Below are positions 21,514 through 48,699 of a DNA stretch of 48,699 nucleotides, piece by piece. Position 1 is the first letter of the stretch; every line of letters starts with the position of its first letter. The notes beneath the pieces are model-generated. The model had not been told where the DNA came from. It saw only the letters and a list, made by a program, of their open reading frames with translations, and did no database searches. The position numbers and the translations under genes are program-made. The stretch lies in the IMG/VR virus record IMGVR_UViG_3300009678_000013. One strand, written 5' to 3'. Source of the DNA: a virus.

Positions 21514-22097
21514 CCGTTCGCTCCTGGTTCATGTTGCCGCTTGGGTTCCAGCCCGTTGATAACCGCGCCGGGGAAAATCTCTTTGACCGATAGGATGGCC
21601 CGCGAGGCGGCAAGCAAGCTCGCCACTTCGTCGGGCGTCAGGCTGACCGCCTCGGGTTCCGCTGGCGGCATTGCGCCATGTCGATTGCGGATCACGACGC
21701 GCAGGCCGGTTGTGCGATCTATACCTAACAAGTAGGCATCATCGTCCACTTGCGCCTCGACCATCGTTTTGATTGCCAAGGTGTAACCGCGCACCGTTGC
21801 TTGCGCGATCGCCTCTAGTTCGCTCCAATTTTCCTCGATCACGCAGCGGGAATCATAGATTTGAACTTGGTCGAACATGCGCCGGTATAGATCGGGGTTG
21901 ACGCGGGACAAAGCTGCCCATGTCCATCGCGCATGAAATTGGTCAGCGATGGCGTTCACTTGCTCCATGATCTTCGCCAGCCGTTCGCTGTCGGTGATGC
22001 GCCGAGGCGGCGGCGGCGGCAAGTTTGGCCTCGCCATCGGCGACGGCGGCGGAAGCTGTTTTTTCGGCGTCTTAAAATCCTTCGGCATCCTCGCCAT
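21510..22097 (-). CDS. Hypothetical protein with a proline-rich N-terminus
   Basis: 195-aa ORF with an ATGA overlap to the downstream gene. Confidence 0.55.
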   Translation of the reverse strand: MARMPKDFKTPKKQLPPPSPMARPNLPPPPPRRITDSERLAKIMEQVNAIADQFHARWTWAALSRVNPDLYRRMFDQVQIYDSRCVIEENWSELEAIAQATVRGYTLAIKTMVEAQVDDDAYLLGIDRTTGLRVVIRNRHGAMPPAEPEAVSLTPDEVASLLAASRAILSVKEIFPGAVINGLEPKRQHEPGANG

Positions 22098-22125
22098 TGG
22101 GAACCTCTTTCATGACTTCATGAAG

Positions 22126-29894: not shown

Positions 29895-29990
29895 CTTTCC
29901 CTCTTTCCGCCCTAACAGGGCACACAAGAAAATGCCATCCAGATAGTTGCCGCTGCGAAACTGATGGCGAAGATCGCGCAGCGGATCGTT

Positions 29991-30160
29991 AGCCCAACCA
30001 TACCTGACCCAACCATACCTGACCTGACCTAGCCATGCCTGACCTAGCCCAACCTGACCACGCCATGCCGTTCCCATCCTTACCCGGCCTTGCCCGACCT
30101 CGCCGTGGCGAACCTTACCCGGCCTTGCCCGACCTCTCCTGACTCGACCCGGCCTTGCCC
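29991..30160 (-). repeat. Pentanucleotide array A: 34 phase-locked units with RCC on plus (GGY on minus)
   Basis: CC starts at every position 29993+5k up to 30158. Only 30108 (gc) and 30143 (ct) differ. The array starts at the stop codon of gene 30160..30813 and contains sub-repeats ccaaccatacctgac x2 and acccggccttgccc x3. Confidence 0.9.
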
Positions 30161-30813
30161 TAATCAATCGGCAGAATTTCCCATTGAGTCACGACGAAGC
30201 GCCCATAGGACGGGCGGAAATCGCCGACGCCAATCAGTTTGCCGGCACGATCTAGAACTTCCCGAAGTAATGACGGGCCGACATACTCTGGAAGGTTCGA
30301 CATAAAAATGAAATCGGCTTTCCAGCCCGCCCGCATGGCCGGACGAGTCCGGTTGATACCAGCGCGGCCGACGACGACACGCCGGGTGTCCAGATAATCC
30401 CATTCGGTTGTCGTCTCGCCCTTGGCACTGGCGATTGGCGCGAGCGGCGTCAAGCTAATGACGGCGGCCTTGGTTAAGTCCATTGCCGATTTGCGTGGCG
30501 ACCTGGGGTCTTGAGAAAACTTCGCCGCATGGATGATCGATTGCCTGACATACTCGCCAGGCAAACATAGTTCATTGATTTCGTTTCGCCAGATGTAGGA
30601 TTCGATGTCATCGCTCTTTTTCGCGGCGCTGCCCTTCTTAGCCTTAGCCTTCTCGATCACTGACTCGACGCCCCATCGATGGAATAGAAGGTCCGCCTCA
30701 CCCTGAATCGTAACTGCGACCCGAAACGGCATTTCCAGAGAAATGATGTCCGCTCCGCTGTTCGTCGGTTCTGACAGATTGTCAACCGCCTTTAATACTG
30801 ATGCCTTCGCCAT
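30160..30813 (-). CDS. Hypothetical 217-aa protein bracketed by the pentamer arrays; weak RAMP-like motifs
   Basis: Clean ORF with RBS aggagag. LCLPGEYVRQSIIHAAK and the C-terminal GVGDFRPSYGRF loosely resemble RAMP motifs by eye only. Confidence 0.6.
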   Translation of the reverse strand: MAKASVLKAVDNLSEPTNSGADIISLEMPFRVAVTIQGEADLLFHRWGVESVIEKAKAKKGSAAKKSDDIESYIWRNEINELCLPGEYVRQSIIHAAKFSQDPRSPRKSAMDLTKAAVISLTPLAPIASAKGETTTEWDYLDTRRVVVGRAGINRTRPAMRAGWKADFIFMSNLPEYVGPSLLREVLDRAGKLIGVGDFRPSYGRFVVTQWEILPID

Positions 30814-30872: not shown

Positions 30873-31267
30873 CAGCCTCGCCTTACCAAGTCATGCCCGA
30901 CCGGAACAGGCCCCGCCACGTCTCGCCAAGCCAATCCAGGCCACACCAAGCCGAACCTAACCGCGCCTCGCCAAGCCGCGCCGCTGCGAACCAATCCGCG
31001 CCGTATCCGGCCCTGCCGCACCGCGCCATGCCTCAACTCACCACGCCCAATCCAACCCAACCCGGCCCCGCTCAACCATTCCCTACCGGACCGCACTCTG
31101 CCCTACCAAACCGTAGCCCACCAAACCTGACCTGACCTGACCACACCAAGCCGCACCGCGCCATGCCTCGCCGAGCCTTGCCCTGTCACACCAAACATCA
31201 CCGCGCCAAGCCTGACCTCACCTAACCAGACCTAACCCCGCCTCACCGCGCCAAGACAAACCCGGCC
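30873..31267 (-). repeat. Pentanucleotide array B: 79 phase-locked NNRCC units on plus (GGYNN on minus)
   Basis: By hand count, 66 of 79 consecutive pentamers end in CC with no phase slip. All 13 exceptions keep one C. The base before CC is a purine in 63 of 66. The array fills the spacer from the stop of gene 31271..32185 to about 60 nt before the 217-aa gene start. Confidence 0.9.
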
Positions 31268-31270
31268 AGA

Positions 31271-32185
31271 TCACTTGAACTTGGGCATGGCGTAGGACTT
31301 GGATAGGAACCCATGCCCCGGATTGATAAGCGCCGATCGGACCCATACGTTCTTGCTGTCAAGATGTCGAACATGGCCGCGCCGTGTGTGTGTCCGGGGC
31401 GAAGCATGATGACCACCCTGCCCATTGGCCCGAGGCGCATTCGGGCGCTCGCGGATGGTCAAGACGTGATAGTCGAACAGCGGCGGCTTGCCCCTGGCGA
31501 TCCTAGCCTTGTTCAATTTCGGCGGCGAAGGAACGCGGTCGATCCCGACGTTTGACATTTGCAGCATCTTGACAATGCAGACGACCGGATAGGTAAACGC
31601 CACCATCATTGACCCAAGGTCTGATTCTCCCTCTGGCATCGAATCAAAATCATGTTCAGTCCCAGGACGATCCACAACCTGATAGACCAATTCGCGCTTG
31701 ATCCCATCGTTGCCATGAATCTTGATTGAATCTGACGGGCTTTTCGGCGTGACCGGCATGGAGTAGGCCACTGAACCGCGAGGAAACAAAAAACAGCCTC
31801 TTGCGGTCAGGATTGTGAACCGACAGGCGAACAGAGGCGCGGCATTCAACGGGGTCAAGCCCTCTAGGTCCTCAAGATAAACCCCATCCATCGCCATGCA
31901 ATGAACTCTAGCCTGATGCGGTTTCCCGTCCGGTTCTAACAATTCTGCGGCAAACTCAAGGCAAGTAATATTGTAGGGCAGATGGATCGGGTCATCCAAT
32001 TCTTTGACATCCATGATGTTGCCTTCGTTCGGCAACTGAAAAATTCCTGCCTCTCTAATCATGTCGGCATAGGCTCGTTCTTCCTTGTTCGGATGATCCT
32101 TCCACTCCGCATAAATCCGAGAAGTATAATTCCCAGGATCATGCGGATGCAGCAGATTGACTTGTTCCTCGGCGAGCGCACTCAT
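31271..32185 (-). CDS. Hypothetical protein with a basic C-terminus (HTRRGHVRHL)
   Basis: 304-aa ORF. Confidence 0.55.
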   Translation of the reverse strand: MSALAEEQVNLLHPHDPGNYTSRIYAEWKDHPNKEERAYADMIREAGIFQLPNEGNIMDVKELDDPIHLPYNITCLEFAAELLEPDGKPHQARVHCMAMDGVYLEDLEGLTPLNAAPLFACRFTILTARGCFLFPRGSVAYSMPVTPKSPSDSIKIHGNDGIKRELVYQVVDRPGTEHDFDSMPEGESDLGSMMVAFTYPVVCIVKMLQMSNVGIDRVPSPPKLNKARIARGKPPLFDYHVLTIRERPNAPRANGQGGHHASPRTHTRRGHVRHLDSKNVWVRSALINPGHGFLSKSYAMPKFK

Positions 32186-32382: not shown

Positions 32383-32872
32383 TGGAACCTCTTAAAGTGT
32401 GAAGGCCGTAACTGGCGATTAGACACGCCTCGGCGCGATCCGCATCCTTGACCCTAGCGAACAGGCCCGACGAATGCGGGAACAGTTCGCTGGCCCGAAG
32501 CCGGCTCGCATCCTTCTCCGACCCGCTTGCAAGGCGATGGTGCTTCTTCCAGACGGCCGGGGGAACGAGAGTCATCGGCAGGAAGTTGGCCCCTACTACG
32601 CCGACTAGGCCGCCGAAGATCATACCGAAGCGGAAGGCCGATGACACTCCCTGTCCAGGGAAGGCGGACACCCTTTCGATAAAGGCATGTTCGATAGCTG
32701 ATGCCCGAGCATCAACCCATCGCGCCAGTTCCGACCAATTGGGATGCCGCCTGACCTTACCGCCCTTGTCGCCCTCGATCGTGGGAACATCGTAAACTTC
32801 CAGATCGCGGTCAGGGTAGATGATCGCCAGCGCCCCGCTCAAACCTGGATCGATGCCAAGGACGCCCTTCAT
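32342..32872 (-). CDS. ruvC: RuvC-like Holliday junction resolvase
   Basis: 176 aa from MKGVLGIDPGLSGALAI (catalytic Asp context). ATGA overlap with the upstream gene. Confidence 0.65.
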   Translation of the reverse strand: MKGVLGIDPGLSGALAIIYPDRDLEVYDVPTIEGDKGGKVRRHPNWSELARWVDARASAIEHAFIERVSAFPGQGVSSAFRFGMIFGGLVGVVGANFLPMTLVPPAVWKKHHRLASGSEKDASRLRASELFPHSSGLFARVKDADRAEACLIASYGLHTLRGSNASQSNPPADARL

Positions 32873-33535: not shown

Positions 33536-34564
33536 CTACCCCCGCTTGCTAAGGGACGGGAACATGACCGCCATCGACCCGCGATCGGGCAACCCATCGG
33601 CGAACATGGACACGACATGGACCGCCTTGGGCGAGGTTCGTTCAAACTCTCCCTTGGCGGCGATCGCCTGTCCCTCATCATCATACCGATGCACGCCCTG
33701 CCACTGTGTCGAAACCCAATCGGAGCAGATCACGCCATCGGACCTTTTCTCGATCCGGTAGATGCCCCAGGCCCCGCGACCCTTCGGCCTCGGGATCATC
33801 CTGCGAACAGCATCGGCCAAGGTATCGACCGCAGGGCTATCCTTGACATTGAACGTCATGATGACGGTTTGCTCGCGGCCAGCCAAGCCGGCCACCATCG
33901 CCGCCACCTTTGCCGAGTCCGCCGCCGGTAGCCGCAATTGAAACGTGACCTTGCCATCCCATCCGAGCGAGGCGATCGACTCGCTGTCGATGCGGACAAC
34001 CTTCGGCTCCTGTTCGCCGCCGCGATTGTGTCTCTGATAGAGCGAATCATCATCGTCCCGATCGAACGCAGCCAGGAGCGCCTTGAACCTTTCCCGCTGT
34101 CGCTCCGCATGGCCTTGGTTCTCGCCGCAGGCGGCGATGACCTCGCGCAAGATCGGCAAACCCGGATCGAGCAAGCGCCGCCGCAGATCGGCGACTAGCT
34201 TGGCAACCGGGCGAGTCCAATCCTGTGAAATCTCAAAATCGGCATTAGCATAGTCCCGATTGAAATCCCGCCAGGAATATCGGCCGCTGACCTCATCACG
34301 CGGGCAAACCATGTCGATCGTGACCTTGGCGTCGGCCCCATAGGTGACAACGGAACAGCCTAGATCAATCTCGCCGTCGCTGATCCAAAGGTGATCGCCA
34401 GGAGCATCGGGATAGTCCGATGCTGCCGGGTTATAGGCGTGGCGGACCTTGAAGTCAGGCCCGAGCGCCGCCGCGATTTGCGGGGCGATGTCTTGCAGCA
34501 TGGAGCGCCGCCGAGTTGCCTCGGTGTCCCGCTTTTGCTGCCGCTCTTTATAGTCCATGTTCAT
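33536..34564 (-). CDS. Hypothetical protein
   Basis: 342-aa ORF with a cattgtggaacc start context. Confidence 0.6.
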   Translation of the reverse strand: MNMDYKERQQKRDTEATRRRSMLQDIAPQIAAALGPDFKVRHAYNPAASDYPDAPGDHLWISDGEIDLGCSVVTYGADAKVTIDMVCPRDEVSGRYSWRDFNRDYANADFEISQDWTRPVAKLVADLRRRLLDPGLPILREVIAACGENQGHAERQRERFKALLAAFDRDDDDSLYQRHNRGGEQEPKVVRIDSESIASLGWDGKVTFQLRLPAADSAKVAAMVAGLAGREQTVIMTFNVKDSPAVDTLADAVRRMIPRPKGRGAWGIYRIEKRSDGVICSDWVSTQWQGVHRYDDEGQAIAAKGEFERTSPKAVHVVSMFADGLPDRGSMAVMFPSLSKRG

Positions 34565-34637
34565 TGTGGAACCTCTTTGTTAGGTGATGTCGGATTGACA
34601 TCATCGGAACATGACATAGCGTCATGCCCCTGTGTTG
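34565..34637 (-). repeat. Intergenic cassette copy with a variant stem
   Basis: gatgtcggattgaca box, hairpin catgac/gtcatg (34610-34615 and 34621-34626), a tgttgtcaac box next to the upstream stop, and gaggttccacaatg at the next start. Confidence 0.7.
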
Positions 34638-34835
34638 TCAACTCGCCGCCTTCCTGGTGGCAATGAGGGTTATGTATCCATCCCTGGAAACATCGGCGGT
34701 TCGGGACCATCCCGATTCCGGGTAATCGATCTGGAACCGATGGACGGCGTTCACAAATAGGGACGGACTCTTGACGCCCCACGAAATCATTAACTCGGTT
34801 TCGACCCTCGAAACATTTGCGTCGTATCTGTCCAT
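34638..34835 (-). CDS. Hypothetical protein
   Basis: 65-aa ORF. Confidence 0.5.
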   Translation of the reverse strand: MDRYDANVSRVETELMISWGVKSPSLFVNAVHRFQIDYPESGWSRTADVSRDGYITLIATRKAAS

Positions 34836-34837
34836 TG

Positions 34838-35152
34838 TCAGCCTGCCTTTCGCATGTCATCGATCGCCCGCTGGCGGATATGGCGATGCGCCCAGGACTG
34901 GCGCTGAATCACCTTGAGCCTGTAGCCGATCGCTGTCAGTTCATGGAACAGCGCGGCATACTCGGTCGGCTTGGCCCTGGCGGTCATGCCGACAACCGCA
35001 TGGGGATCGCAATGCCCATGCTGCCCGACGTGAACGTAGTCCGCGCAGGAGTCCGGGCTGTTAGTCCCTGGCAGGGTCGGGAATATGGCGATGATTTCGC
35101 CGTCCCTGAACCGGCGAAAGATGACCGGCGTTTCGTGTGTATCCTTGTCCAT
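34838..35152 (-). CDS. Hypothetical protein
   Basis: 104 aa from MDKDTHETPV. Start context catcgtggaacc. Confidence 0.55.
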   Translation of the reverse strand: MDKDTHETPVIFRRFRDGEIIAIFPTLPGTNSPDSCADYVHVGQHGHCDPHAVVGMTARAKPTEYAALFHELTAIGYRLKVIQRQSWAHRHIRQRAIDDMRKAG

Positions 35153-35225
35153 CGTGGAACCTTCCTTTCGATCGATGTCTGACTGACACCATCGGCCCAT
35201 GTCTATCTGACATGGGCCTGTGCTG
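35153..35225 (-). repeat. Intergenic cassette copy with a variant stem
   Basis: gatgtctgactgacacc box, 10-bp hairpin ggcccatgtc/gacatgggcc (35194-35203 and 35209-35218), and a tgctgtcaac box. Confidence 0.7.
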
Positions 35226-35768
35226 TCAACCTCCGCCGATCGTGCGCTCATAATACCGCTTTTGCTTTGCCAGCTTAGACAAGGCATTGACGGCTCGGAT
35301 TTCCTTGCGCCTCCACGCCTCCATGCGCTTGATGATCGAGGCGAGGCGGTCTTGCCGCTTGGCGTCCAGGGTCGGCGCGGGCTTTTCCGGCCGCCTTAGC
35401 TTGCCTTCCAGCCAGCCGCTTGTGACAACGTGCTGGATCATGCTCCGCTCTAGGAAGGCATGAGCGCCGGTTTTATCGTGCGGCTTTTTCCCAGGATGCA
35501 GCCGGCGATGGCACCAATGCGAAACCGAATGCACAAGGTCATGCCATCCCGCGCCGGCATTGACCGAATAGACCCCGTAGCGCGGCCAAGTGTGCCGGCG
35601 TCCGGTTGTGATCCGATACTTGCCCCGGTATTTGACCTTGGTGAACCGGAGCAGCCGCTTGACCGCCGTGATTGCCTCGGCGTCAGTCAGCTTTGGGAGC
35701 TTGCTCCGCTCGCAAGGCCACGCTCCATTGACTGTGGAGTAGGGACGGCGATCGTTCTCATCGTCCAT
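35226..35768 (-). CDS. Hypothetical His-rich protein
   Basis: 180-aa ORF containing WHDLVHSVSHWCHRRLHP. Confidence 0.55.
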   Translation of the reverse strand: MDDENDRRPYSTVNGAWPCERSKLPKLTDAEAITAVKRLLRFTKVKYRGKYRITTGRRHTWPRYGVYSVNAGAGWHDLVHSVSHWCHRRLHPGKKPHDKTGAHAFLERSMIQHVVTSGWLEGKLRRPEKPAPTLDAKRQDRLASIIKRMEAWRRKEIRAVNALSKLAKQKRYYERTIGGG

Positions 35769-35955
35769 TACCGCCCCCTTTCCACGCCTCGATCAATTCA
35801 TCGATCGTGCGCTTGTCCTGATTGTAGCCAGCCTGCCAGCAATAGGCTTGCCAGCCTGCCGGGTATGGGTTCCTTGCCCGATTGTCATATCGGGCGAAGT
35901 TACCCGCGCCCCTCGCCGCATTGCCCTTTAACACTAGGGTAAATTTTTCGTCCAT
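35758..35955 (-). CDS. Hypothetical protein
   Basis: 65-aa ORF with start context cattgcggaacc. Confidence 0.5.
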   Translation of the reverse strand: MDEKFTLVLKGNAARGAGNFARYDNRARNPYPAGWQAYCWQAGYNQDKRTIDELIEAWKGGGNGR

Positions 35956-35964
35956 TGCGGAACC

Positions 35965-36156
35965 TCATCCTTGCGGCAAATGCCGCTCTAGTAATCCCCA
36001 AAGGCGGGTTTGCTTGGCAATCATTCGGTCATGAGCGCGAAGCGCCGAGCGATCGCCCTTCATTGGATCATTGCAAACCCGACTGTATTGGATCGAGGCA
36101 TTGGCGTATTGCTCGGCCGCCGCCTTGACCCGATCGATGATCGGTGTCTTTGTCAT
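35965..36156 (-). CDS. Hypothetical protein
   Basis: Start moved to MTKTPIID (36156), because the predicted transcript from the 36194 promoter begins near 36187. Confidence 0.45.
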   Translation of the reverse strand: MTKTPIIDRVKAAAEQYANASIQYSRVCNDPMKGDRSALRAHDRMIAKQTRLWGLLERHLPQG

Positions 36157-36193
36157 CTTTAACCCTTTCAAATAGCCATTTGTTAGTGTGACC

Positions 36194-36221
36194 ATTATAC
36201 CACAGTCTGACAGATTGTCAA
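36194..36221 (-). promoter_or_regulatory. Consensus sigma70-type promoter, leftward
   Basis: The minus strand reads TTGACA (36221-36216), a 16-nt spacer ending in TGG, then TATAAT (36199-36194). This is an extended -10 context. Confidence 0.7.
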
Positions 36222-36295
36222 CTGTGACAGATTGTCACATGGCAAAATGCCGGCAGATCGCAGATCGCCAAATGTCAATGCGACAGATTGTCGCA
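36209..36295. promoter_or_regulatory. Cluster of three palindromic operator-like sites
   Basis: ctgacagattgtcaa (core 36209-36219), tgtgacagattgtcaca (36223-36239) and tgcgacagattgtcgca (36279-36295). The first two overlap or abut the -35 element. Confidence 0.6.
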
Positions 36296-36297
36296 GG

Positions 36298-36534
36298 CTA
36301 GTTCATGGTCGCCAGAAAAAACACCTTTGCATCCGCGAGGCAGCCTTCCTTGCGAATCTCAAACCGCTGGCCCTCGCCTTCAAGGATCGCAACCCCTTCG
36401 GAGTTGAGAACCTTCAAAAGATCGGCCGCGAAAGCCGAGTCAGAAGCCGCCTCGGCCACGTCGGTAAACTGCACCGTCATGATTCGGCCGATCGGCTTGC
36501 CTTCCTTGTCAACGTAGCAACAGAGGCATTCCAT
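36298..36534 (-). CDS. Hypothetical protein
   Basis: 78-aa ORF. Confidence 0.5.
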   Translation of the reverse strand: MECLCCYVDKEGKPIGRIMTVQFTDVAEAASDSAFAADLLKVLNSEGVAILEGEGQRFEIRKEGCLADAKVFFLATMN

Positions 36535-36537
36535 GAT

Positions 36538-36723
36538 TCAATCTCCCTCGACCGGCTCATCGGTCCAATAGTTTGAGTTTGTGAAAATGTCCGGGCGATA
36601 GCCGCGCCGCTTTTCTGCCTCGCATTTCTGGCAGACGTAGGTGCAGAAAATACCGCGAGCATCCCGCAGTTCATAGCGCCGCAGGCCAGAACCGCACCGG
36701 CAGAGCTTGTCATTGCAGGCCAT
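36538..36723 (-). CDS. Small Cys-rich zinc-binding protein
   Basis: 61 aa from MACNDKLCRCGSG...CTYVCQKC. TGACATG junction with the upstream gene. Confidence 0.5.
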   Translation of the reverse strand: MACNDKLCRCGSGLRRYELRDARGIFCTYVCQKCEAEKRRGYRPDIFTNSNYWTDEPVEGD

Positions 36724-36724
36724 G

Positions 36725-36919
36725 TCAATCCTCCGCCTCGGGGCAATTGATCGACCATTGACCGACCTTATTGCCGTTCCGGTCGGCGATCCGACCATCA
36801 TCTTGCCGAGCGCCGGATTGTTCCAACCGATCGGCCACACGACGCAAAGCATCGGCAACGTGCCGGCCATTGAGCATCGCCGCATTGCCTAGCTCGATTT
36901 TCAAATGGAAATAACTCAT
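36725..36919 (-). CDS. Hypothetical protein
   Basis: 64 aa from MSYFHLKIEL. Start context catttctggaacc. Confidence 0.5.
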   Translation of the reverse strand: MSYFHLKIELGNAAMLNGRHVADALRRVADRLEQSGARQDDGRIADRNGNKVGQWSINCPEAED

Positions 36920-36997
36920 TTCTGGAACCTCATTCTCATCGGGGCAGGATCGCCACCATGGAGCGCCGCCGATCGCCGACGGCGCTCTAGCTGGCAC
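36920..36997 (-). repeat. Intergenic hairpin cassette
   Basis: caccatg-gagcgccg (36961-36968), loop, cggcgctc (36980-36987), then tagctgg, next to the upstream stop at 36998. Confidence 0.75.
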
Positions 36998-37273
36998 CTA
37001 GCGGCTATAACAGGCCGCGTGGCGAGGCATGAAAAAATCACGCAAGCGCCCATCGACAACATCAAGATGGCCCACGATGCCGGCAACATCGTGGACAAGG
37101 TTGAAATCATCCGCCGCCGCCAGCCGGTTCAGATCGAGCGGGCAAATATCGCCATGACAGATCGCCAAGGAACTCTCGACCATTGCCGGGTTCAAATCGT
37201 GCTTTTTCATGATGCCGACGGCGCGAGTCGCGATCGCCTGAATCATATTCCTGTCATGCTGTGATAGCTTCAT
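36998..37273 (-). CDS. Hypothetical protein
   Basis: 91-aa ORF. Confidence 0.55.
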   Translation of the reverse strand: MKLSQHDRNMIQAIATRAVGIMKKHDLNPAMVESSLAICHGDICPLDLNRLAAADDFNLVHDVAGIVGHLDVVDGRLRDFFMPRHAACYSR

Positions 37274-37345
37274 TCGTGGACCTCATTCTAGTGGGGCAAG
37301 ATTGCCACCATGGAGCGCCGCCATACCGCGACGGCGCTCTAGCTG
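37274..37345 (-). repeat. Intergenic hairpin cassette
   Basis: gcaagattgccaccatg-gagcgccg (37313-37320), loop, cggcgctc (37332-37339), then tagctgtcaac. Confidence 0.75.
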
Positions 37346-37990
37346 TCAACCCGTCACGTTGTAAGCCTCGGCCGCTTCGGCGCGACCCCTGGCAATCCCC
37401 GCCTCGATCCGCTCATCCTCCCGATACTCGGCCCACATTTCAGGGACACCCTCGCACCATGCGCCGACGTAGGAATTGAAGGACTCGAGAATCAGGATGG
37501 CCCGAGTTATGTCGGCGATCCGCTGGCCCTCGAATGCGTCCGTTTTGAGCGCAAAGGATGAACCGCCGCGACCGCCGACAAGGGTATCAGGGGCGAGAGT
37601 CCGCCCGCCTCGGCCATACTGATAGAGCTTGCCGAACTCGCCAATCAACTCCCAGGCCGCAGCCGATCGCCCATGTTCCAGATCGAACTCCCGCAGCCTA
37701 TGGGCGACGTAGTATCGCCGCGCCGCTTCGCTCTTGAACTTGCCGGCATTGGCAGGGTGTTCCAGCGTGCGCCGATAGTCGGCGCGATCGCCGCCATAAG
37801 CGCCGCCGCTTCGCAAGTAATCAACCTCGCCATCGACCGCAAACTCAAACCACGATTGGAAGGCTTCGCCCTCAATGTCATCCAGACAGGGATAACGCGG
37901 CGTTGCATTGTGATACAGGCGACCGATCGCCTCGGCAGCCCGCGCCTCGATCGCAGCCCGCCGCCTTGTATGCTTTGCTCTATTGCCCAT
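37346..37990 (-). CDS. Hypothetical protein
   Basis: 214 aa from MGNRAKHTRR. Start context cattgtggaacc. Confidence 0.55.
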   Translation of the reverse strand: MGNRAKHTRRRAAIEARAAEAIGRLYHNATPRYPCLDDIEGEAFQSWFEFAVDGEVDYLRSGGAYGGDRADYRRTLEHPANAGKFKSEAARRYYVAHRLREFDLEHGRSAAAWELIGEFGKLYQYGRGGRTLAPDTLVGGRGGSSFALKTDAFEGQRIADITRAILILESFNSYVGAWCEGVPEMWAEYREDERIEAGIARGRAEAAEAYNVTG

Positions 37991-38051
37991 TGTGGAACCT
38001 TCCTGTTGGGTTGACACCTTGAAGCGCCGACCGAAATCGGCGCTCTAGCTA
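37991..38051 (-). repeat. Intergenic hairpin cassette, shorter copy
   Basis: ttgacacc, then stem agcgccga/tcggcgct (38023-38030 and 38037-38044), then ctagctatca. Confidence 0.7.
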
Positions 38052-38315
38052 TCAGCCGGCATATGCCGATTCGATCCGCTTTCCGGTATGATCGCAGATC
38101 AAATTTCCATCCTCCCAATTGATGTCGAATCCCTCGACAAGCCAGCCCGAGTTGCGATCGTTCCAGAGTCGCGCTCTGACAATCTGTCGCCATTCGGCCT
38201 TGACCGCCTCGAATGAAAGCGCCGCCCCGTCCGATGTCACGAAATACATGGGATAACCCCCAGGCCAAGCATAGGGACCATTCCGCAGCACTTCCTTGAT
38301 TTTCAATAGAGTCAT
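38052..38315 (-). CDS. Hypothetical protein
   Basis: 87 aa from MTLLKIKEVL. Start context cattgtggacc. Confidence 0.55.
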   Translation of the reverse strand: MTLLKIKEVLRNGPYAWPGGYPMYFVTSDGAALSFEAVKAEWRQIVRARLWNDRNSGWLVEGFDINWEDGNLICDHTGKRIESAYAG

Positions 38316-38338
38316 TGTGGACCTCCAAAATTTGACCC

Positions 38339-38388
38339 TGCCAATCTGGCACAATTGCCCGAGCCTGCCCATGCGGCAGATTGTCACA
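38339..38388. promoter_or_regulatory. Two CAGATTG-type operator-like palindromes
   Basis: tgccaatctggca (38339-38351, inverted) and tgcggcagattgtcaca (38372-38388). This spacer lacks the hairpin cassette. Confidence 0.45.
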
Positions 38389-38710
38389 TGGCAGCCTTTC
38401 GCAGCATGGTGTTCAAAGCCTTGTTTGCTCGTTTCTGGCGATCCTTGGCGATGTCAAGAAACGCCGCCTCCCGATCGAGCGCCGCCGCCGTCGCCTTGGC
38501 GATCGCCGATGCCGCGACATAGATGGCAACGGATTCCTCGGATGTATAACCAAGGGTGAAATTGTAGCCATCGGTCAACGCCGCCATCTGGCGAGCGATC
38601 GCCTTTAGCGCCGCTTTCCTAGAGCGTGATTCTCTGACCTCTTGGTCGGAATCGTCCAATTCCCTGATTGCTTCCCGAGAACCGGGAATTTCCTGTATCT
38701 GTAGCGCCAT
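38384..38710 (-). CDS. Hypothetical protein
   Basis: 108-aa ORF with start context cattgtggaacc. Confidence 0.55.
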   Translation of the reverse strand: MALQIQEIPGSREAIRELDDSDQEVRESRSRKAALKAIARQMAALTDGYNFTLGYTSEESVAIYVAASAIAKATAAALDREAAFLDIAKDRQKRANKALNTMLRKAAM

Positions 38711-38785
38711 TGTGGAACCTCCTAGTTAGTGACTGACTGACACCATGGAGCGCCGCCGGCATAGACGGCGCTCTAGCTGGCAGCC
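38711..38785 (-). repeat. Intergenic hairpin cassette
   Basis: ctgacaccatg-gagcgccg (38748-38755), loop, cggcgctc (38766-38773), then tagctggcagcc. Confidence 0.75.
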
Positions 38786-39244
38786 CTAGACCACCGCCCA
38801 CTCTTGATTCCATTCGCCCTTGGAATCCCTGTAATAGAATGTCGCGTTGCCATGATCCGAGACGACGCAGAACATGCCGGACTCGGGCGCGACCTCGGGC
38901 AACTCATCGCCGAATTCGACTCCATCATCTTTGGCCCGCTCTTGCCAATCCTCCGAGAGCCAGAACCCATAGTCTGACCCGTCGCCAGGGTGAGCGCCGA
39001 AATAACCATACGACGGCGCGAATTCGTTCAGCTTGTCCGATAGCTCGGTCACGACTTCGCTTGCAGCAATCTGGCCCTCATCGTTAAGCCAGCCCTCGCG
39101 ATCGGCGACCACCAATGCCCGAGCCTCATCGATGTTCTCTGGATCGGAATCATCCAGATCACGGAGCGCCGACAGGAACGCCTCGATTAGATCGCATGAG
39201 CGCATCGTGCCATGCGATATAGTGCCAAATGTCGCCTTGCCCAT
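38786..39244 (-). CDS. Hypothetical strongly acidic protein
   Basis: 152-aa D/E-rich ORF. Confidence 0.55.
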   Translation of the reverse strand: MGKATFGTISHGTMRSCDLIEAFLSALRDLDDSDPENIDEARALVVADREGWLNDEGQIAASEVVTELSDKLNEFAPSYGYFGAHPGDGSDYGFWLSEDWQERAKDDGVEFGDELPEVAPESGMFCVVSDHGNATFYYRDSKGEWNQEWAVV

Positions 39245-39322
39245 TGTGGACCTCTTGTCTAATAACGATGCCGGATTGACACCATGGAGCGCCGACGCGG
39301 AGTCGGCGCTCTAGCTGGCAAC
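39245..39322 (-). repeat. Intergenic hairpin cassette
   Basis: gccggattgacaccatg, then 10-bp stem gagcgccgac/gtcggcgctc (39287-39296 and 39302-39311), then tagctggcaacc. Confidence 0.8.
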
Positions 39323-39529
39323 CTATGCCGCACGCAATAGGAACCCTTCGCGCTTGACCTTGCCAGCCTTGACGGCCAGCGAAATCAAAGCCTCGAATTG
39401 CGCCAGAGTCATCTTGCCCATCAATGCGGCGTATAGATGCCCCGACGGGATACCTCGCGACCCCGCCTCGGCGATCGCTTCGGCGATGGCATTTACCAAT
39501 TGCACGATTGCATCATGCTTCGCATTCAT
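39323..39529 (-). CDS. Hypothetical protein
   Basis: 68-aa ORF with start context cattgtggaacc. Confidence 0.55.
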   Translation of the reverse strand: MNAKHDAIVQLVNAIAEAIAEAGSRGIPSGHLYAALMGKMTLAQFEALISLAVKAGKVKREGFLLRAA

Positions 39530-39600
39530 TGTGGAACCTCATTCTCAATCGATGTCGGATTGACACCATGGAGCGCCGCCAATAGACGGCGCTCTAGCTA
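39530..39600 (-). repeat. Intergenic hairpin cassette
   Basis: gatgtcggattgacaccatg-gagcgccg (39571-39578), loop, cggcgctc (39587-39594), then tagctatca. Confidence 0.8.
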
Positions 39601-39723
39601 TCAGCCCTTGCGCCGCCGAATGCGCTCCAAAGCCTCGCGGTCTAATCGATCCTCGACCACCGCGACATATGCGCCAGCGATCGCCGAAACGATCGCCGCC
39701 CATATTGCCAGGATCACGATCAA
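39601..39723 (-). CDS. Possible 40-aa TM micro-protein with a TTG or GTG start
   Basis: (M)IVILAIWAAIVSAIAGAYVAVVEDRLDREALERIRRRKG. The TTG overlaps the upstream TGA (TTGA). A cassette follows its stop, as for the other genes. Confidence 0.35.
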   Translation of the reverse strand: MIVILAIWAAIVSAIAGAYVAVVEDRLDREALERIRRRKG

Positions 39724-39938
39724 GCCCGCACCCGATCGCGACCATTGCAGGGTTCGCCATTGGCAGCCGACATGAACCGATCGCGCTGGAATCGATCGTT
39801 ATCAGCCTTGAACTCGACCACCAAATGCGCCGCCAATAGATCAAGGGTCTTTGCATCCGCCCGGCTATCTTGCCGAACGGTTGCGATGATGGCAGCCAAT
39901 GCCTTATAGTGGCGATGCTCGAAAGTAGGATTTTTCAT
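39720..39938 (-). CDS. Hypothetical protein
   Basis: 72-aa ORF with start context catcttgtggaacc. Confidence 0.5.
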   Translation of the reverse strand: MKNPTFEHRHYKALAAIIATVRQDSRADAKTLDLLAAHLVVEFKADNDRFQRDRFMSAANGEPCNGRDRVRA

Positions 39939-39966
39939 CTTGTGGAACCTTTCAAAAAGTTAGAGT

Positions 39967-40015
39967 GTCAATCTGTCATAGATACGACAAGCCAGCAATG
40001 CGGCGGATTGTCGCA
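39967..40015. promoter_or_regulatory. Two CAGATTG-type operator-like boxes
   Basis: gtcaatctgtc (39967-39977, inverted) and tgcggcggattgtcgca (39999-40015). This spacer lacks the hairpin cassette. Confidence 0.4.
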
Positions 40016-40017
40016 GC

Positions 40018-40122
40018 CTAGATCACGCCGGCCAGCATCAACCCGATGCCGATGGCGACCCAGGCCAGGGCCAGCCAGGATACTAGCGGCATTGATACCG
40101 TTTTTTTGTCCATTAACCACAT
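40018..40122 (-). CDS. 34-aa hydrophobic micro-protein
   Basis: MWLMDKKTVSMPLVSWLALAWVAIGIGLMLAGVI. Below the ORF-track size cutoff. Start context catgctcggaacc. Confidence 0.45.
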   Translation of the reverse strand: MWLMDKKTVSMPLVSWLALAWVAIGIGLMLAGVI

Positions 40123-40197
40123 GCTCGGAACCTCGATCTAATGCGATGCCAGGATTAGCACCATGGAGCGCCGCCGGCCTAGACGGCGCTCTAGCTG
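40123..40197 (-). repeat. Intergenic hairpin cassette
   Basis: gccaggattagcaccatg-gagcgccg (40166-40173), loop, cggcgctc (40184-40191), then tagctgcta. Confidence 0.75.
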
Positions 40198-40401
40198 CTA
40201 CCAGCGGCCGGAGTCTTTGATCGCCTTGTGCATGAATGTCAGTCCGCGCCATACGACCGGGCAGGCGACCGCGACCGCCAAGACGCCATTGTAGAACAGG
40301 AACGACGCGCCATTGATGCCAACCCAGGAATAGCCAGGGACCGGATTGATTGACGCCATGGGGCGGCGGGGATCGCCTTGCGTAATGGTCAGATGGATCA
40401 T
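40198..40401 (-). CDS. Small membrane protein
   Basis: 67 aa from MIHLTITQGD. Contains a hydrophobic segment. Start context catttgtggacc. Confidence 0.5.
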   Translation of the reverse strand: MIHLTITQGDPRRPMASINPVPGYSWVGINGASFLFYNGVLAVAVACPVVWRGLTFMHKAIKDSGRW

Positions 40402-40481
40402 TTGTGGACCTCTTGCCTTGTCGCGATGTCGGATTGACACCATGGAGCGCCGACGCGGAGTCGGCGCTCTAGCTGCAAACC
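40402..40481 (-). repeat. Intergenic hairpin cassette
   Basis: gatgtcggattgacaccatg, then stem gagcgccgac/gtcggcgctc (40445-40454 and 40460-40469), then tagctgcaaacc. The hairpin is identical to the 39287 copy. Confidence 0.8.
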
Positions 40482-40772
40482 CTAGAGCAAAGACCCTTGC
40501 GCCTCGATCGCCTCGACCTCATCGCCGGGGCCGAGTGTTGCCATCAGCCAGCGATCGCCCCCGAGCCGGGAACCGCAGCAATCGCACGCCGACCATGAGA
40601 ACCCTTCGCCCTCGTAATTATCGCCGACGCCGGCCGGGACCAAATGCAGGCCAGGGAACGCCACCCGCAAGACCTCGGGCAATTCCGGCCGATCCTCGGG
40701 AATGTCGCCATTGGCAGCGAATGCCAGACAGTCAACGCAGCATCGCAGGCCATCATGAACAATGCAGGCCAT
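40482..40772 (-). CDS. Small Cys-rich protein
   Basis: 96 aa from MACIVHDGLRCCVDC...CDCCGS. Its ATG lies 2 nt after the upstream stop. Confidence 0.5.
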   Translation of the reverse strand: MACIVHDGLRCCVDCLAFAANGDIPEDRPELPEVLRVAFPGLHLVPAGVGDNYEGEGFSWSACDCCGSRLGGDRWLMATLGPGDEVEAIEAQGSLL

Positions 40773-40774
40773 GA

Positions 40775-40894
40775 CTACCTCCGATCGAACAGGCCAGCGC
40801 CGCCAGCAATGGCAAGCGCCAGAACGGACACGCAAACCGCCAGCAACCCAAACCGGGCAGCCAGATCGGCAGCCTCGACTAAAACCGTTGACAT
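40775..40894 (-). CDS. 39-aa TM micro-protein
   Basis: MSTVLVEAADLAARFGLLAVCVSVLALAIAGGAGLFDRR. Start context catagtggaacc. Confidence 0.45.
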   Translation of the reverse strand: MSTVLVEAADLAARFGLLAVCVSVLALAIAGGAGLFDRR

Positions 40895-40969
40895 AGTGGA
40901 ACCTCCGACAATCGATGCAAAATCGCACCAGGGAACGCCGACGCGGAGTCGGCGCTCTAGCTGCAATCC
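40895..40969 (-). repeat. Intergenic hairpin cassette, degenerate left box
   Basis: Stem gaacgccgac/gtcggcgctc (40933-40942 and 40948-40957, one mismatch), then tagctgcaatcc. Confidence 0.65.
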
Positions 40970-41194
40970 CTACAGCGAAATCCGGGCATAGTGACGCCAA
41001 TAAACCCGGTTCCGAGCCTTGTCCGATGGCGATTGCCAGCCCTTCCCACGGCAGCCATAGCAGGGGCCAATCTTGCCCGTATAGACGCCGTTCAGAACCA
41101 TCCCGCCGGCATAGAACTTGCCCGATCCCGAGCACTTGAAACAGACGCACGAACCGGCCGGAGCATCCGCCGGAACCTTGTCAATCATCGCCAT
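40970..41194 (-). CDS. Small DnaJ-type zinc-finger protein, first gene of the leftward arm
   Basis: 74 aa from MAMIDKVP. Two CxxCxGxG motifs (CFKCSGSG and CYGCRGKG). Confidence 0.55.
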   Translation of the reverse strand: MAMIDKVPADAPAGSCVCFKCSGSGKFYAGGMVLNGVYTGKIGPCYGCRGKGWQSPSDKARNRVYWRHYARISL

Positions 41195-41238
41195 TTGTGG
41201 ACCTCGATCTAGCTGTTGCCTTCGATGGCGAAGATGAA

Positions 41239-41450
41239 TGCCAGATTGACAGGAATCAAGCCACAAGTTGACATTGCGTCAATTTGTCGCGGATGTCGCG
41301 AACGTCGCTAATGCAGAAACGTCGCAAACGTCGCAAACGTAGAAATCTTAACGAATTTCAGCCGGAGCGACGTTTTTGACAGGTGAAGCGGTTGAAATCC
41401 CTCCCGTATAAAAAAGACAGCATTTAACATCTATCTATATGTATTATTTC
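41239..41450. promoter_or_regulatory. Divergent control or origin-like region: CAGATTG box, 9-bp iterons and an AT-rich island
   Basis: tgccagattgaca (41239-41251). (T/C)GTCGC at 41285, 41294, 41303, 41320 and 41329, mostly at 9-bp spacing, plus an inverted copy at 41367. The AT-rich stretch 41406-41450 stands out in a roughly 60% GC genome. Confidence 0.45.
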
Positions 41451-41567
41451 GGTTCTCTACTCTGGAAAAATGCCGCGGCGGCTGAAATCCGTTAATGCCC
41501 TTCGGTTCCGTATGGTTATCGCTATATAGGGCCGCTTCGGACCTAATCGCCAGCGATCGGCCAAATC

Positions 41568-41866
41568 GAGCGCCGCCGGATGCCTTTGGCGACATGGGAG
41601 CGCCGATCGGATCGCAGCCGGCGGAATGCCTCGCAATGGACCCTGGTAGGCGATGGGAGCGCCATCGATGCCGGCGGAGTCAGTCCGCACCCTGGCGGGG
41701 CCATGGAGCGCCATGGAGCGCCGCGACCTCGACCCAGGCGCGAGGCATGGTGCAGCAGGCGAGCGCCGACCATGGCACGCCGCCGGCCGGGCGAAGCGAT
41801 GCCGAGCGCCGCCCCAGGCCCCGCCGACGCCGGCCGCCCCCCTGCCGGCGGCCGAGCGGCGCTCGC
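41568..41866. repeat. GC-rich non-coding array of ATGGAGCGCC half-sites
   Basis: (at)gg(g)agcgcc(g) occurs at about 41568, 41594, 41653, 41703, 41713, 41761 and 41803. This matches the left arm of the cassette hairpin without its partner arm. ORFs here are R/A/G-rich in all frames. Confidence 0.55.
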
Positions 41867-42006
41867 GATTCTCATGCCCACCATCCGCGCAAATTTTTTC
41901 CGCATAGCTTCTGGCGGGTTGTTTCATGTGGAACATGAGGGTTTTGCGCCAAATCGAGAATTGGTGTATTGGGGCTTGCCTAGCTGCAAGGGCTAGGGGG
42001 TATTTG

Positions 42007-47566: not shown

Positions 47567-48699
47567 ATGTATGTAAAAAACGAAGAACTCGAAACTCCCG
47601 AGGCTCGCAAGGCGCTAGTCCAGCGGCTATCCGCTGACATCAAGGGAGCAAAAAAGTATTTCGATGATGACTTTCGGGCCATGCACGACGACATGGAAGT
47701 TGCTTGGACTGGCGCGTCAAAGAATTGGCCGAAGGATAATTACCGTGTCAACGTGACACAGCGGCATGTCAAGCAAAAGACCGCCGAGCTTTACGCCAAG
47801 AACCCAAAGGTTCAAGCCAAGATTCGGCCGAAAGTCGAATTCGCCGTGTGGGACGGCTCGCCCGAGACGCTACAGCAGGCGCAGCAGGAAATGATGATGG
47901 CGCAGCAGGCGATGCTCGGGATACCGCCACAAGCGCCGATGCAGCCACAGCCCGGAGCGCCAGCGGGCAACGGGCAAATGCCGCCCGAGGCTATGGGCCA
48001 AATGCAGACACAGGGGCCAATGCCGGCTGATCCAATGGGCGCTGGAATGATGAATCCCATGATGCCATCGCCGGAATCGATCGCGATCTTGCAGGAAGTC
48101 GAGATTTTCAAGGCGCGGCACAAGATGCTTCGCCGCCTCGGCAAGACGATGGAATCCCTGTGGGACTATTACACAGGCGAGCAAATCCCGCCGTTCAAGG
48201 ATTTGATGAAGGCTTGTGTCCGAACCTCGATCACTTGCGGGATCGGTTACACGAAGCTCGGATTCCAGCGCGAGGGCGAGCGCCGACCCGATGCCTCGGC
48301 GGATATTGCCGATTCGACTGTGCAGATCGCGCACATGGAACGGCTGTCGCAGGAATTGAAGGAAGGCGACATCACGACCGATGATGCCGATGCCGAGGAA
48401 TTGCGCCTCGGGATGCAGGCGCTTCAAGCACAGCCCGAGTTGATAGTGCGCGAGGGCATGGTGATCGATTTCCCATTCCCGACCGCGATCATCCCTGATC
48501 CGCAATGCGTTTCATTGAAGCATTGGGTCGGCGCTGACTTCTTGGCAGAGGAAATTTTCTTGACCCCGGATGAGGTCAAAGAAATCTACGGCGTTGATGT
48601 CTCGGGAACCCAAGCATCCACGTCCGATGGCGGCAACAAATATACGCCGTATTCAACGGCGGCCCGCGACTACAAGAACAATCCTCGCGCTGAAATCAG
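47567..48699 (+). CDS. Portal protein, N-terminal part; the ORF runs off the window end and continues at 124..1249
   Basis: ATG at 47567 lies 6 nt after the terL stop. The frame is open to the window end and, via the 123-nt overlap, in frame with ORF 2..1249. It is missing from the ORF track because it has no stop in the window. It contains a Q/P/M-rich low-complexity insert. Confidence 0.8.
   Translation, partial: MYVKNEELETPEARKALVQRLSADIKGAKKYFDDDFRAMHDDMEVAWTGASKNWPKDNYRVNVTQRHVKQKTAELYAKNPKVQAKIRPKVEFAVWDGSPETLQQAQQEMMMAQQAMLGIPPQAPMQPQPGAPAGNGQMPPEAMGQMQTQGPMPADPMGAGMMNPMMPSPESIAILQEVEIFKARHKMLRRLGKTMESLWDYYTGEQIPPFKDLMKACVRTSITCGIGYTKLGFQREGERRPDASADIADSTVQIAHMERLSQELKEGDITTDDADAEELRLGMQALQAQPELIVREGMVIDFPFPTAIIPDPQCVSLKHWVGADFLAEEIFLTPDEVKEIYGVDVSGTQASTSDGGNKYTPYSTAARDYKNNPRAEI
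48577..48699. repeat. Terminal overlap copy 2, identical to 1..123
   Basis: Exact 123-nt match to the window start. Confidence 0.9.

Follow-up and report, generated by a model that had tools for sequence, protein, structure and literature searches.

The window analysed here, the whole 48,699-nt stretch of IMG/VR record IMGVR_UViG_3300009678_000013, is the genome of an uncultivated soil phage (JGI metagenome contig Ga0137431_1000088). The genome is complete, circularly assembled and phage-like, with bases 1–123 identical to 48577–48699. Its leftward genes run from 41194 to about 17.5 kb; in the part from 41.2 to 33.5 kb the genes are small and nearly all orphans. A module of ~75 nt, here termed the cassette, recurs in this array in 11 full copies (34562–40972), each extending on the minus (mRNA) strand from the stop codon of one gene to the ATG of the next. 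The 21 gene junctions of the leftward array from 41194 to 33536 divide into 11 with a cassette, 7 with overlapping or abutting genes, and 3 (at 40018, 38384 and 36298) with a different, operator-like palindrome. A first-pass annotation made from the letters alone had reported eleven cassette junctions at 34.5–41.0 kb; all the elements that it listed were found in place, on the minus strand.

In mRNA order a cassette holds the 5' arm of a lower stem (P1), a GC hairpin (HP1), the 3' arm of P1, which can instead enter a second hairpin (HP2), and a ribosome-binding block from the Shine-Dalgarno sequence to the ATG (SD..ATG). The copies and related features are as follows, with bit scores from a covariance model built on the 11 junctions.

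40892–40972, minus: cassette c01, stop TAG to ATG, 72.4 bits; P1 5' arm 40970–40962, HP1 40958–40933, HP2 40929–40913, SD..ATG 40905–40892.
40399–40484, minus: cassette c02, 76.5 bits; P1 5' arm 40482–40474, HP1 40470–40445, HP2 40441–40425, SD..ATG 40412–40399.
40120–40200, minus: cassette c03, 81.7 bits; stop UAG inside P1, whose UAGCA/UGCUA pairing is a compensatory variant; HP1 40192–40166, HP2 40162–40145.
39527–39603, minus: cassette c04, 95.6 bits, nearest to consensus; P1 5' arm 39607–39599 (GGGCUGAUA, stop UGA included), HP1 39595–39571, P1 3' arm 39565–39557, HP2 39567–39551, SD..ATG 39540–39527.
39242–39325, minus: cassette c05, 86.8 bits; HP1 39312–39287, HP2 39283–39267 with one U·G pair (GGCAUC).
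38708–38788, minus: cassette c06, 82.5 bits; HP1 38774–38748, HP2 region 38744–38728 a degenerate variant (UGUCAGUCAGUCA).
37988–38054, minus: cassette c07, 66.8 bits, the shortest copy; HP1 38046–38022, HP2 degenerate.
37271–37348, minus: cassette c08, 73.7 bits; stop UGA within GGGUUGACA (37352–37344), HP1 37340–37313, HP2 a compensatory variant (GGCA/UGCC).
36917–37000, minus: cassette c09, 79.4 bits; P1 UGCCA/UGGCG compensatory, HP1 36988–36961, HP2 variant GGCG/UGCC.
35150–35228, minus: cassette c10, 67.3 bits, stem family B, folding z = −6.0; HP1 GGCCCAUGUC/GACAUGGGCC 35219–35194, P1 GGUUGACA/UGUCAGUC, HP2 35190–35174.
34562–34640, minus: cassette c11, 63.6 bits, stem family B; HP1 34631–34606 with two G·U pairs, HP2 34602–34586 wholly Watson-Crick (GAUGUC/GACAUC).
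41192–41218, minus: hairpin-less module of the first operon gene, CAACAGCTAGA followed by TCGAGGTCCACAAATG; 5' box and ribosome-binding block, no HP1 or HP2.
36194–36221, minus: the only strong sigma-70-type promoter in the array, TTGACA-16-TATAAT, 12/12 matches.

The repeat family is real, statistically secure and previously undescribed. The exact 12-mer GCTAGAGCGCCG occurs nine times, always on the minus strand and between 36980 and 40961, with no other exact occurrence; c10 and c11 use a different stem sequence (family B) in the same architecture. A 28-mer of the module is present three times and appeared in none of 100 shuffles. Aligned from stop codon to ATG, the 11 junctions have a mean column identity of 71%. 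The first-pass annotation had proposed such an alignment followed by a covariance model; the model returned exactly the 11 full-length copies at 63–96 bits, a recovery that is by construction, and the informative part is the next match, at only 18 bits. All 11 copies lie between co-oriented open reading frames (ORFs), the intercistronic position of a T7-type RNase III site. The array has only one strong promoter, and we infer from this that the early RNA is polycistronic. That promoter parts the family-A cassettes, upstream of it, from the family-B cassettes downstream.

The cassettes are not an assembly artefact, since ENA and Logan data give the same genome, independently assembled, at 99.99–100% identity to the JGI version. 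No GenBank phage matched the genome, or the cassette pattern, at the nucleotide level by megablast or blastn, and the pattern was absent from 185,579 bacterial genomes and from IMG/VR. We therefore rejected the idea that it is a copy of a host repeat. In JGI metagenomes it was found only in fragments of the same phage and in one chance match within a bacterial coding sequence. Microcystis phage Mae-Yong1326-1 and Rhizobium phage RHph_N65, a distant relative, each have a large terminase (TerL) 43% identical to that of this phage, whose best TerL homologue among 5.8 billion proteins reaches 51%. The flanks of terL in three of the best TerL homologues (≤51% identity) held no cassette array, nor did two GenBank relatives, and five related phage loci gave no match to the covariance model. 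When the 342-aa protein, the DUF6874 protein and the primase were used as protein queries, they returned the phage itself or nothing. The search of related phages that the first-pass annotation had advised thus met no relative above 51% TerL identity in these collections and none with the cassette, so that this comparison could not discriminate among readings.

We folded single copies and the alignment as RNA. The 5' box GGGUUGNCA contains or abuts the stop codon. The first-pass annotation had described a box of 5–10 nt; the box is there, but it is not a separate element, being the 5' arm of P1. At the core of P1, UGNCA pairs with the UGNCA of GGTGTCAATCC; in a fixed register of nine positions, GG(G)UUGNCA with UGNCAAUCC, 82 of 99 cells are paired. 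Six copies carry the stop codon inside the P1 5' arm (e.g. GGU-UGA-CA, GGC-UGA-UA), and as a consequence four of the six proteins concerned terminate in glycine. In the other five, UAG directly precedes the arm or forms its start. P1 is followed by a G·G mismatch, a C-G pair, an internal loop that is conserved on both sides (5' CUAG, 3' CCAUGG), and HP1, a GC stem of 10–11 bp. With P1 at 5–9 bp, the whole is an irregular helix of ~20–24 bp-equivalents, about two A-form turns, in all copies. HP1 occurs in two unrelated stem sequences (families A and B) with 7 different loops, yet has one structure.

A second hairpin lies in CCATGGTGTCAATCCGACATC. HP2 combines the P1 3' arm with the following GACAUC into a 6-bp stem and 5-nt loop (GGUGUC-AAUCC-GACAUC), and is mutually exclusive with P1. 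The two conformers are nearly iso-energetic, differing by 1.4–5.5 kcal/mol in 9 of 11 copies, and the full-length minimum-energy fold is one or the other, varying by copy. A bistable fold overlapping stop codons is unusual.

Both folds are maintained by covariation. All 10 HP1 stem positions are paired in all 11 copies, by 101 Watson-Crick and 12 G·U pairs with no A·C. Counted on a MAFFT alignment that was not fitted to any structure, 90.9% of P1 + HP1 cells are paired and six pairs have changed on both sides; none of 500 shuffles was as good, a comparison among paralogues, and slid registers gave 26–57% pairing. For HP1 + HP2 the figure is 88.4%, again unreached in 500 shuffles. In HP2, U-A is replaced by C-G or G-C in c01, c03, c08 and c09, and c05 has a U·G pair. 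Over all helices together, G·U outnumbers A·C by 42 to 7, and in 10 of 11 copies folding is more stable for the sense strand than for the antisense (−310.9 vs −266.8 kcal/mol). Because there are compensatory changes in both folds, G·U exceeds A·C, and the sense strand folds better, the cassette probably functions as folded sense RNA.

A palindrome acting in double-stranded DNA is disfavoured, since it would show no strand asymmetry. Regulator-binding sites had been among the candidate roles of the first-pass annotation. We regard it as improbable that each cassette is a DNA-level operator or 'stoperator', in which a dimeric phage or host regulator would bind the TGNCA-N3-NGNCA palindrome, possibly together with the TTGACA-like inverted arms flanking HP1, and so silence or time early transcription. 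The 13-mer TGNCAATCNGNCA does occur 12 times against 0.055 expected; 4 of these are cassette HP2 and 8 lie outside cassettes, where two overlap the −35 region of the only strong promoter and one is 45 nt upstream of the first early gene. The strong promoter at 36221–36194 is overlapped by two TGACAATCTGTCA palindromes, at 36237–36225 and 36220–36208. Oriented intergenic binding sites also have precedents in the stoperators of cluster A and the ESAS of cluster K mycobacteriophages (PMC3203893). However, HP2 resembles the promoter's 13-bp palindrome while differing from it at a conserved half-site base in every motif-matching cassette copy: position 9 is C in 4 of 4 such copies vs T in 7 of 8 non-cassette sites. 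This C breaks the half-site, and creates a 5-nt RNA loop whose AAUCC pairs with the GGGUU/GGAUU of P1. Moreover, 7 of 11 cassettes do not match TGNCAATCNGNCA at all, c03, c08 and c09 have a stem spacing that differs by 1 nt, and there is covariation at the N positions, U·G included; varying spacing and covarying N positions fit pairing rather than protein contacts. The bias to G·U over A·C is strand-specific, HP1 comes in two unrelated sequences, and Pfam and PHROG scans of the phage's ORFs (about 64) revealed no repressor or helix-turn-helix protein.

The non-cassette copies of the 13-bp quasi-palindrome, TGNCAATCTGNCA, are at 41251–41239, 39966–39978, 38339–38351, 36237–36225, 36220–36208, 35887–35875, 30784–30772 and 8701–8713, two of them at non-cassette junctions. 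Judging from these sequences there is probably a real operator family for some regulator, which HP2 resembles.

HP1 also invites comparison with terminators. The first-pass annotation held that the hairpins are not classical terminators, and we agree: HP1 is followed by CCAUGGUGUC and never by a U-tract, so an intrinsic terminator was rejected, and the terminator scan never called HP1. The sole terminator-like call inside a cassette (c01) uses another stem register, and the scan found 8 terminators against 8.5 expected from shuffles. The convergent operon ends at 17.2–17.6 kb, where we sought to calibrate this phage's terminators, had no clear canonical terminator either. Attenuators lacking a U-tract are a looser proposal, in which HP1, or P1 with HP1, would pause or partly terminate host RNA polymerase after each gene, yielding a graded drop in expression along the array or a dependence on a phage antiterminator. 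A stable GC hairpin directly after every stop codon fits this, and the intergenic stem-loops of T4-type PeSLs do work as terminators or attenuators (PMC2839356). We nevertheless think it unlikely, as eleven serial terminators would be costly, no antiterminator gene was detected in the phage ORFs, and P1, the stop-codon overlap and the alternative HP2 fold are left unexplained. HP2 has the dimensions of the lambda boxB hairpin (6-bp stem, 5-nt loop), a resemblance only.

Nor are the cassettes sigma-70 promoters; the first-pass annotation had seen in them nothing that was obviously a promoter. A promoter scan of the array gave only 36221–36194 (minus) and a weak plus-strand match at 39881–39910, with no sigma-70-like promoter in any cassette. 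A sigma-70 promoter was rejected on either strand, the TTGACA-like arms lacking a usable −10 at 16–18 nt; by eye, the −10-like TAGAAT is inconsistent and too near the Shine-Dalgarno sequence. Sigma-54 promoter, lambda nut boxA/boxB and attC likenesses were dropped by eye, for misfits of spacing or core motifs. It is extremely unlikely that the cassettes serve a phage RNA polymerase or sigma factor that escaped recognition, with the 21-nt block CCATGGTGTCAATCCGACATC about 25 nt upstream of the ATG as a T7-class-II-like or N4-hairpin-like promoter and a hairpin ahead of it. The conserved block of ~21 nt does stand at a roughly constant distance upstream of the ribosome-binding sites, and T7-like phages have repeated promoters ahead of small early genes. 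Against this, its distance to the ATG varies by about 10 nt, and its variation is compensatory, as in a helix, not conservative. The Pfam and PHROG inventory holds no RNA polymerase or sigma factor, and a 2435-aa protein has no sequence match to solved RNA polymerases. This protein is encoded in the virion module (9938–17245, plus); we call it a polyvalent protein because of its ddrB-ParB and LPD1 domains, and it is probably ejected with the DNA. The remainder of it had no detectable family and no match to solved structures.

The end of the cassette is less restricted in its distribution than the hairpins. The first-pass annotation had treated the fixed block of Shine-Dalgarno sequence, spacer and ATG as part of the cassette; it is present there, but GAGGTTCCACA-ATG also serves 4–5 starts without hairpins. 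In the form RAGGT(T)CCAC(A)ATG it is found at 15–16 early starts, all on the minus strand between 34562 and 41205, conserved well past the Shine-Dalgarno core. Looser versions precede two later genes (32383–32390 and 22095–22107), and the rightward (structural) genes have none. The block is a start-associated sequence in the cluster K sense.

This conservation past the Shine-Dalgarno core, as in cluster K start-associated sequences, could suit a device acting on translation, in which the stop-containing lower stem senses the terminating ribosome, switches to HP2 and controls the next start, or in which a RegA-like phage protein binds HP2 or the ribosome-binding block. P1 contains or abuts every stop codon, and its near iso-energetic exclusion of HP2 is what a switch would use. 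When the footprint of a ribosome on the stop codon was forced to be unpaired, however, accessibility of SD..AUG did not change consistently (0.40–0.59 free, 0.41–0.67 constrained). We dropped the ribosome-sensing or translational-coupling switch on that account, and with the block also serving starts that have no hairpins, control at the level of translation looks quite doubtful.

Tentatively, we favour the view that the cassettes are sites at which RNase III-type processing between cistrons occurs and messages are stabilised, coupled to a conserved ribosome-binding site of the start-associated kind. T7-like processing is preferred because size, internal loop, intercistronic position and multiplicity match the T7 RNase III signals. 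An RNA role comparable to these sites had been one proposal of the first-pass annotation, and it has turned out to fit best, given the irregular ~20–24-bp hairpin, the compensatory changes and the G·U bias of the mRNA strand. The T7 early mRNA precursor has five RNase III processing signals. The idealised RNase III substrate is 22 bp, and internal loops lead to single-strand cuts that leave stabilising 3' hairpins (PMC3867540). Every cassette copy resembles a T7-type site in being an irregular hairpin that spans some two helical turns and contains an internal loop.

In this processing model the cassette would act as folded RNA within the leftward polycistronic early transcript, a module of intercistronic 'punctuation'. 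The ~20–24-bp irregular hairpin, P1 linked via the internal loop to HP1, would form at or after each stop codon and be recognised by a host double-strand-specific endonuclease of RNase III type. A single cut, putatively within the internal loop's 3' side, would let HP1 remain on the upstream message and stabilise its 3' end. The P1 3' arm thus freed could refold with GACAUC into HP2 at the extreme 5' end of the downstream message, where HP2 would be followed by a short spacer rich in A and U and then by the ribosome-binding block RAGGU(U)CCAC(A)AUG. What the sequence itself displays are the repeats and where they lie, the two alternative folds, their covariation and the bias between strands; from these we infer the nuclease, where it cuts and any stabilising effect. 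Processing and refolding would account for all conserved parts, including the double duty of UGUCAAUCC. The model would also explain why the first operon gene has a 5' box and ribosome-binding block but no hairpins; their absence there ties the hairpins to the upstream cistron.

Several points weigh against this model. HP2 is degenerate in c06 and c07. The HP1 stem is near-identical in 9 copies, which is more than structure alone demands and could come from sequence-specific recognition or recent gene conversion. Since the 11 copies are paralogues in one genome, common descent inflates the covariation counts, and the shuffle control is not a probability. Rfam 15, including its ribozymes and nut/put-type elements, gave no match at gathering score in the whole window, and on 34400–41900 only a chance miRNA match (E = 0.3). 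Finally, the HP2 13-mer falls in the TGNCAATCNGNCA motif family, other members of which are DNA-operator-like and sit at a real promoter.

If the processing model is true, one element of ~75 nt would give each cistron an upstream 3' stabiliser, a downstream 5' stabiliser and a standard ribosome-binding site, a compact natural 'insulator' of interest to synthetic operon design, and the hypothesis might be extended to elements of SAS/ESAS type. Sequence offers few clues to how orphan-rich phage early regions are expressed and evolve; repeated intergenic modules are one of them, and most of those described are still without a mechanism. The internal evidence here is unusually clear: one segment has two exclusive partners, both covarying, and there is a stop codon in the lower stem.

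The cassettes clearly recombine with each other. In c10 a family-B stem sits between flanks that resemble those of family A, and c06 has the same HP2 variant as c10. Two strain-variant fragments from another sample, one 99.1% identical (L009) and the other 97% (L010, Ga0137444_1001369), have the same cassettes as the window except for c07 of L010, whose HP1 loop is that of c09. The variants differ from the window in short blocks of ~20–30% divergence, including a 15-nt deletion (L010 vs 37474–37897, L009 vs 39836–39881). These blocks lie inside the 214-aa and 72-aa orphan genes, and the remainder of the region is mostly identical; they look like patchy gene conversion or diversifying exchange within early genes. 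In the 5.4 kb of variant sequence we saw no gene gain, loss or reordering between cassettes.

These observations bear on the suggestion of the first-pass annotation that the cassettes are recombination modules shuffling small ORFs. The exchange of sub-parts is upheld, in the discordant nearest neighbours of 5' box, HP1, HP2 and ribosome-binding block and in the c07/c09 loop exchange; as to the shuffling of genes, no difference of gene content was seen between the available strain variants, and the divergent tracts lie inside genes without being bounded by cassettes. As linkers, the ~75-nt modules would be kept since short-homology recombination can insert, delete or reorder orphan units with expression intact. 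The genes beside cassettes are almost all orphans, and the phage encodes a RecE-like exonuclease and RuvC-like resolvases. But recombination between any 50–80-nt repeats is expected whatever their function, and linkers leave the maintained base pairing and strand bias unexplained, so we find selection for linkage a rather weak prospect. Its extreme form has the hairpins as integron attC-like single-strand sites for some recombinase; there is no tyrosine or serine recombinase in the protein inventory, and there are no GTTRRRY-type core sites. Very improbably, and by analogy alone, this might amount to a phage gene-cassette system like an integron, with hairpins in replicating single-stranded DNA as structure-recognised recombination sites at which a phage enzyme would take up, excise and rearrange orphan genes, whose expression the attached ribosome-binding block would ensure. 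If so, the mosaic sub-parts and the loop swap would be its footprints, not those of ordinary homologous recombination.

Elsewhere in the genome, Pfam and PHROG matches include proteins of DNA metabolism (primase-helicase, RecE-like exonuclease, RuvC-like resolvases), a methyltransferase, a DHH phosphoesterase, a sulfotransferase and an RyR-domain protein, and virion proteins (capsid, portal, SU10-adaptor proteins and the 2435-aa polyvalent protein). The same scans found no integrase and no RNase III. No tRNA genes were found in the whole window. GATC (491 occurrences) and CGATCG (124, the commonest hexamer) are strongly enriched across the window, and GCGATCGC occurs 21 times vs about 1.3 expected (16-fold), with a likeness to the cyanobacterial HIP1 palindrome. 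A cyanophage origin was considered and dropped: G+C is put at 58–60% or at 56–66%, Shine-Dalgarno use is strong, and the nearest phages infect Rhizobium as well as Microcystis.

The 577-nt noncoding gap between the divergent operons (41195–41771, described in minus-strand sense) holds four copies of GGCGCTCC(C)ATGG, at 41722, 41712, 41663 and 41604, which correspond to the HP1 3' half and internal-loop motif, the 5' half being absent. An AT-rich stretch (41420–41480) and five GCGAC(G/A)-type iterons spaced 9–10 nt apart (41340–41285) also lie in this gap, which may be an origin or control region. Two long (GGYNN)n arrays with a strict 5-nt period lie further along in minus-strand sense. The array at 30885–31270, in the 457-nt gap between ORFs 31271–32185 and 30160–30813, has GG at the start of 66 of ~77 consecutive in-phase pentamers; that at 29985–30160, with GG starting 32 of 35 pentamers, extends across the following junction and the 5' end annotated for the RyR-domain ORF. 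A period of 5 nt rules out that they are coding. Candidate roles are a sponge for an RNA-binding protein, an array of G-rich structures or an element that acts as DNA, and the arrays are possibly more unusual than the cassettes.

The cassettes belong among the intercistronic regulatory cassettes of phage early regions, and share features with several of them. The PeSLs (promoter-early stem-loops) of T4-type phages are conserved intergenic modules of ~100 bp with a stem-loop, Shine-Dalgarno sequence and start codon, which lie beside orphan genes of a plastic early region and whose copies recombine with each other; their defining feature is a strong sigma-70-like promoter preceded by AT-rich sequence (PMC2839356). 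The cassettes likewise place a stem-loop, Shine-Dalgarno sequence and start codon beside orphan genes. The first-pass annotation had drawn this comparison, which fails on the defining promoter, as our scan found none in any cassette.

The stoperators of cluster A mycobacteriophages (the L5 gp71 sites) are also many, short, intergenic and in one orientation relative to transcription. They are, however, 13-bp asymmetric sites in double-stranded DNA with an identified repressor, spread across early and late operons, whereas the scans gave no repressor for the cassettes, which all lie within 6.4 kb and whose signal is one of structure. In integrons, as in the Vibrio cholerae repeats, small promoterless orphan ORFs are each followed by a similar imperfect inverted repeat that folds from one strand (attC), much as here. 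Unlike attC, the cassettes go with no integrase, have no R''/L''/L'/R' boxes and no GTTRRRY core (their arms are GGGTTGACA and TGTCAATCC), and are fused to the ribosome-binding site of the next gene, so that the likeness is one of analogy only.

Rhizobium phage RHph_N65 (MN988536.1) has a two-copy junction module on its minus strand, at 36189–36274 and 36506–36573, which is unannotated in the GenBank record and is not detected by our covariance model. As in the cassette, the stop codon lies in CUGACA, and a lower stem (UUUCG/CGAAA) leads through an internal loop to a GC upper stem (AAGGGCG/CGCCCUU), after which CAAMCCGACA precedes GGAG and the ATG. The first gene of that small RHph_N65 operon has a leader with the CAAACCGACAAGGAGTTAC block but no hairpin, which is also the case in the present phage. 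The RHph_N65 module differs in its two copies against 11, in its hairpin sequence and in having no HP2-type hairpin. Its layout hints that the cassette design is older than the present genome.

In form the closest match is to the start-associated sequences and extended SAS (SAS/ESAS) of cluster K mycobacteriophages. The SAS is an asymmetric Shine-Dalgarno block, 3–7 nt before the starts of non-structural genes and in one orientation, with the consensus GGGATAGGAGCCC; about half are preceded by a pair of ~17-bp inverted repeats with a 4–13-bp spacer, and these elements have no known function (PMC3203893). In ESAS the two arms depart from each other in ways that speak against RNA pairing, and the interpretation favoured was a DNA-binding protein (PMC3203893). 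The cassette too has a Shine-Dalgarno block at early starts, in one orientation and preceded by inverted repeats, a likeness of form and not of sequence. In contrast to those of ESAS, its departures are compensatory and G·U-biased; the sequence is another one, and so is the host phylum.

In its working the cassette is, by analogy, most like the RNase III sites of T7, with cleavage here predicted. Differences from the T7 signals are that there is no sequence similarity, that the cassettes overlap the stop codon, compete with HP2 and are fused to a ribosome-binding block, and that this phage has a P22/SU10-like structural module and no phage RNA polymerase. Like T7 R0.3–R1.3, the cassettes would form several conserved intercistronic hairpins in one host-transcribed early polycistronic RNA, and each cassette shares with them an irregular helix of some two turns that contains an internal loop, and has neither a U-tract nor promoter function.

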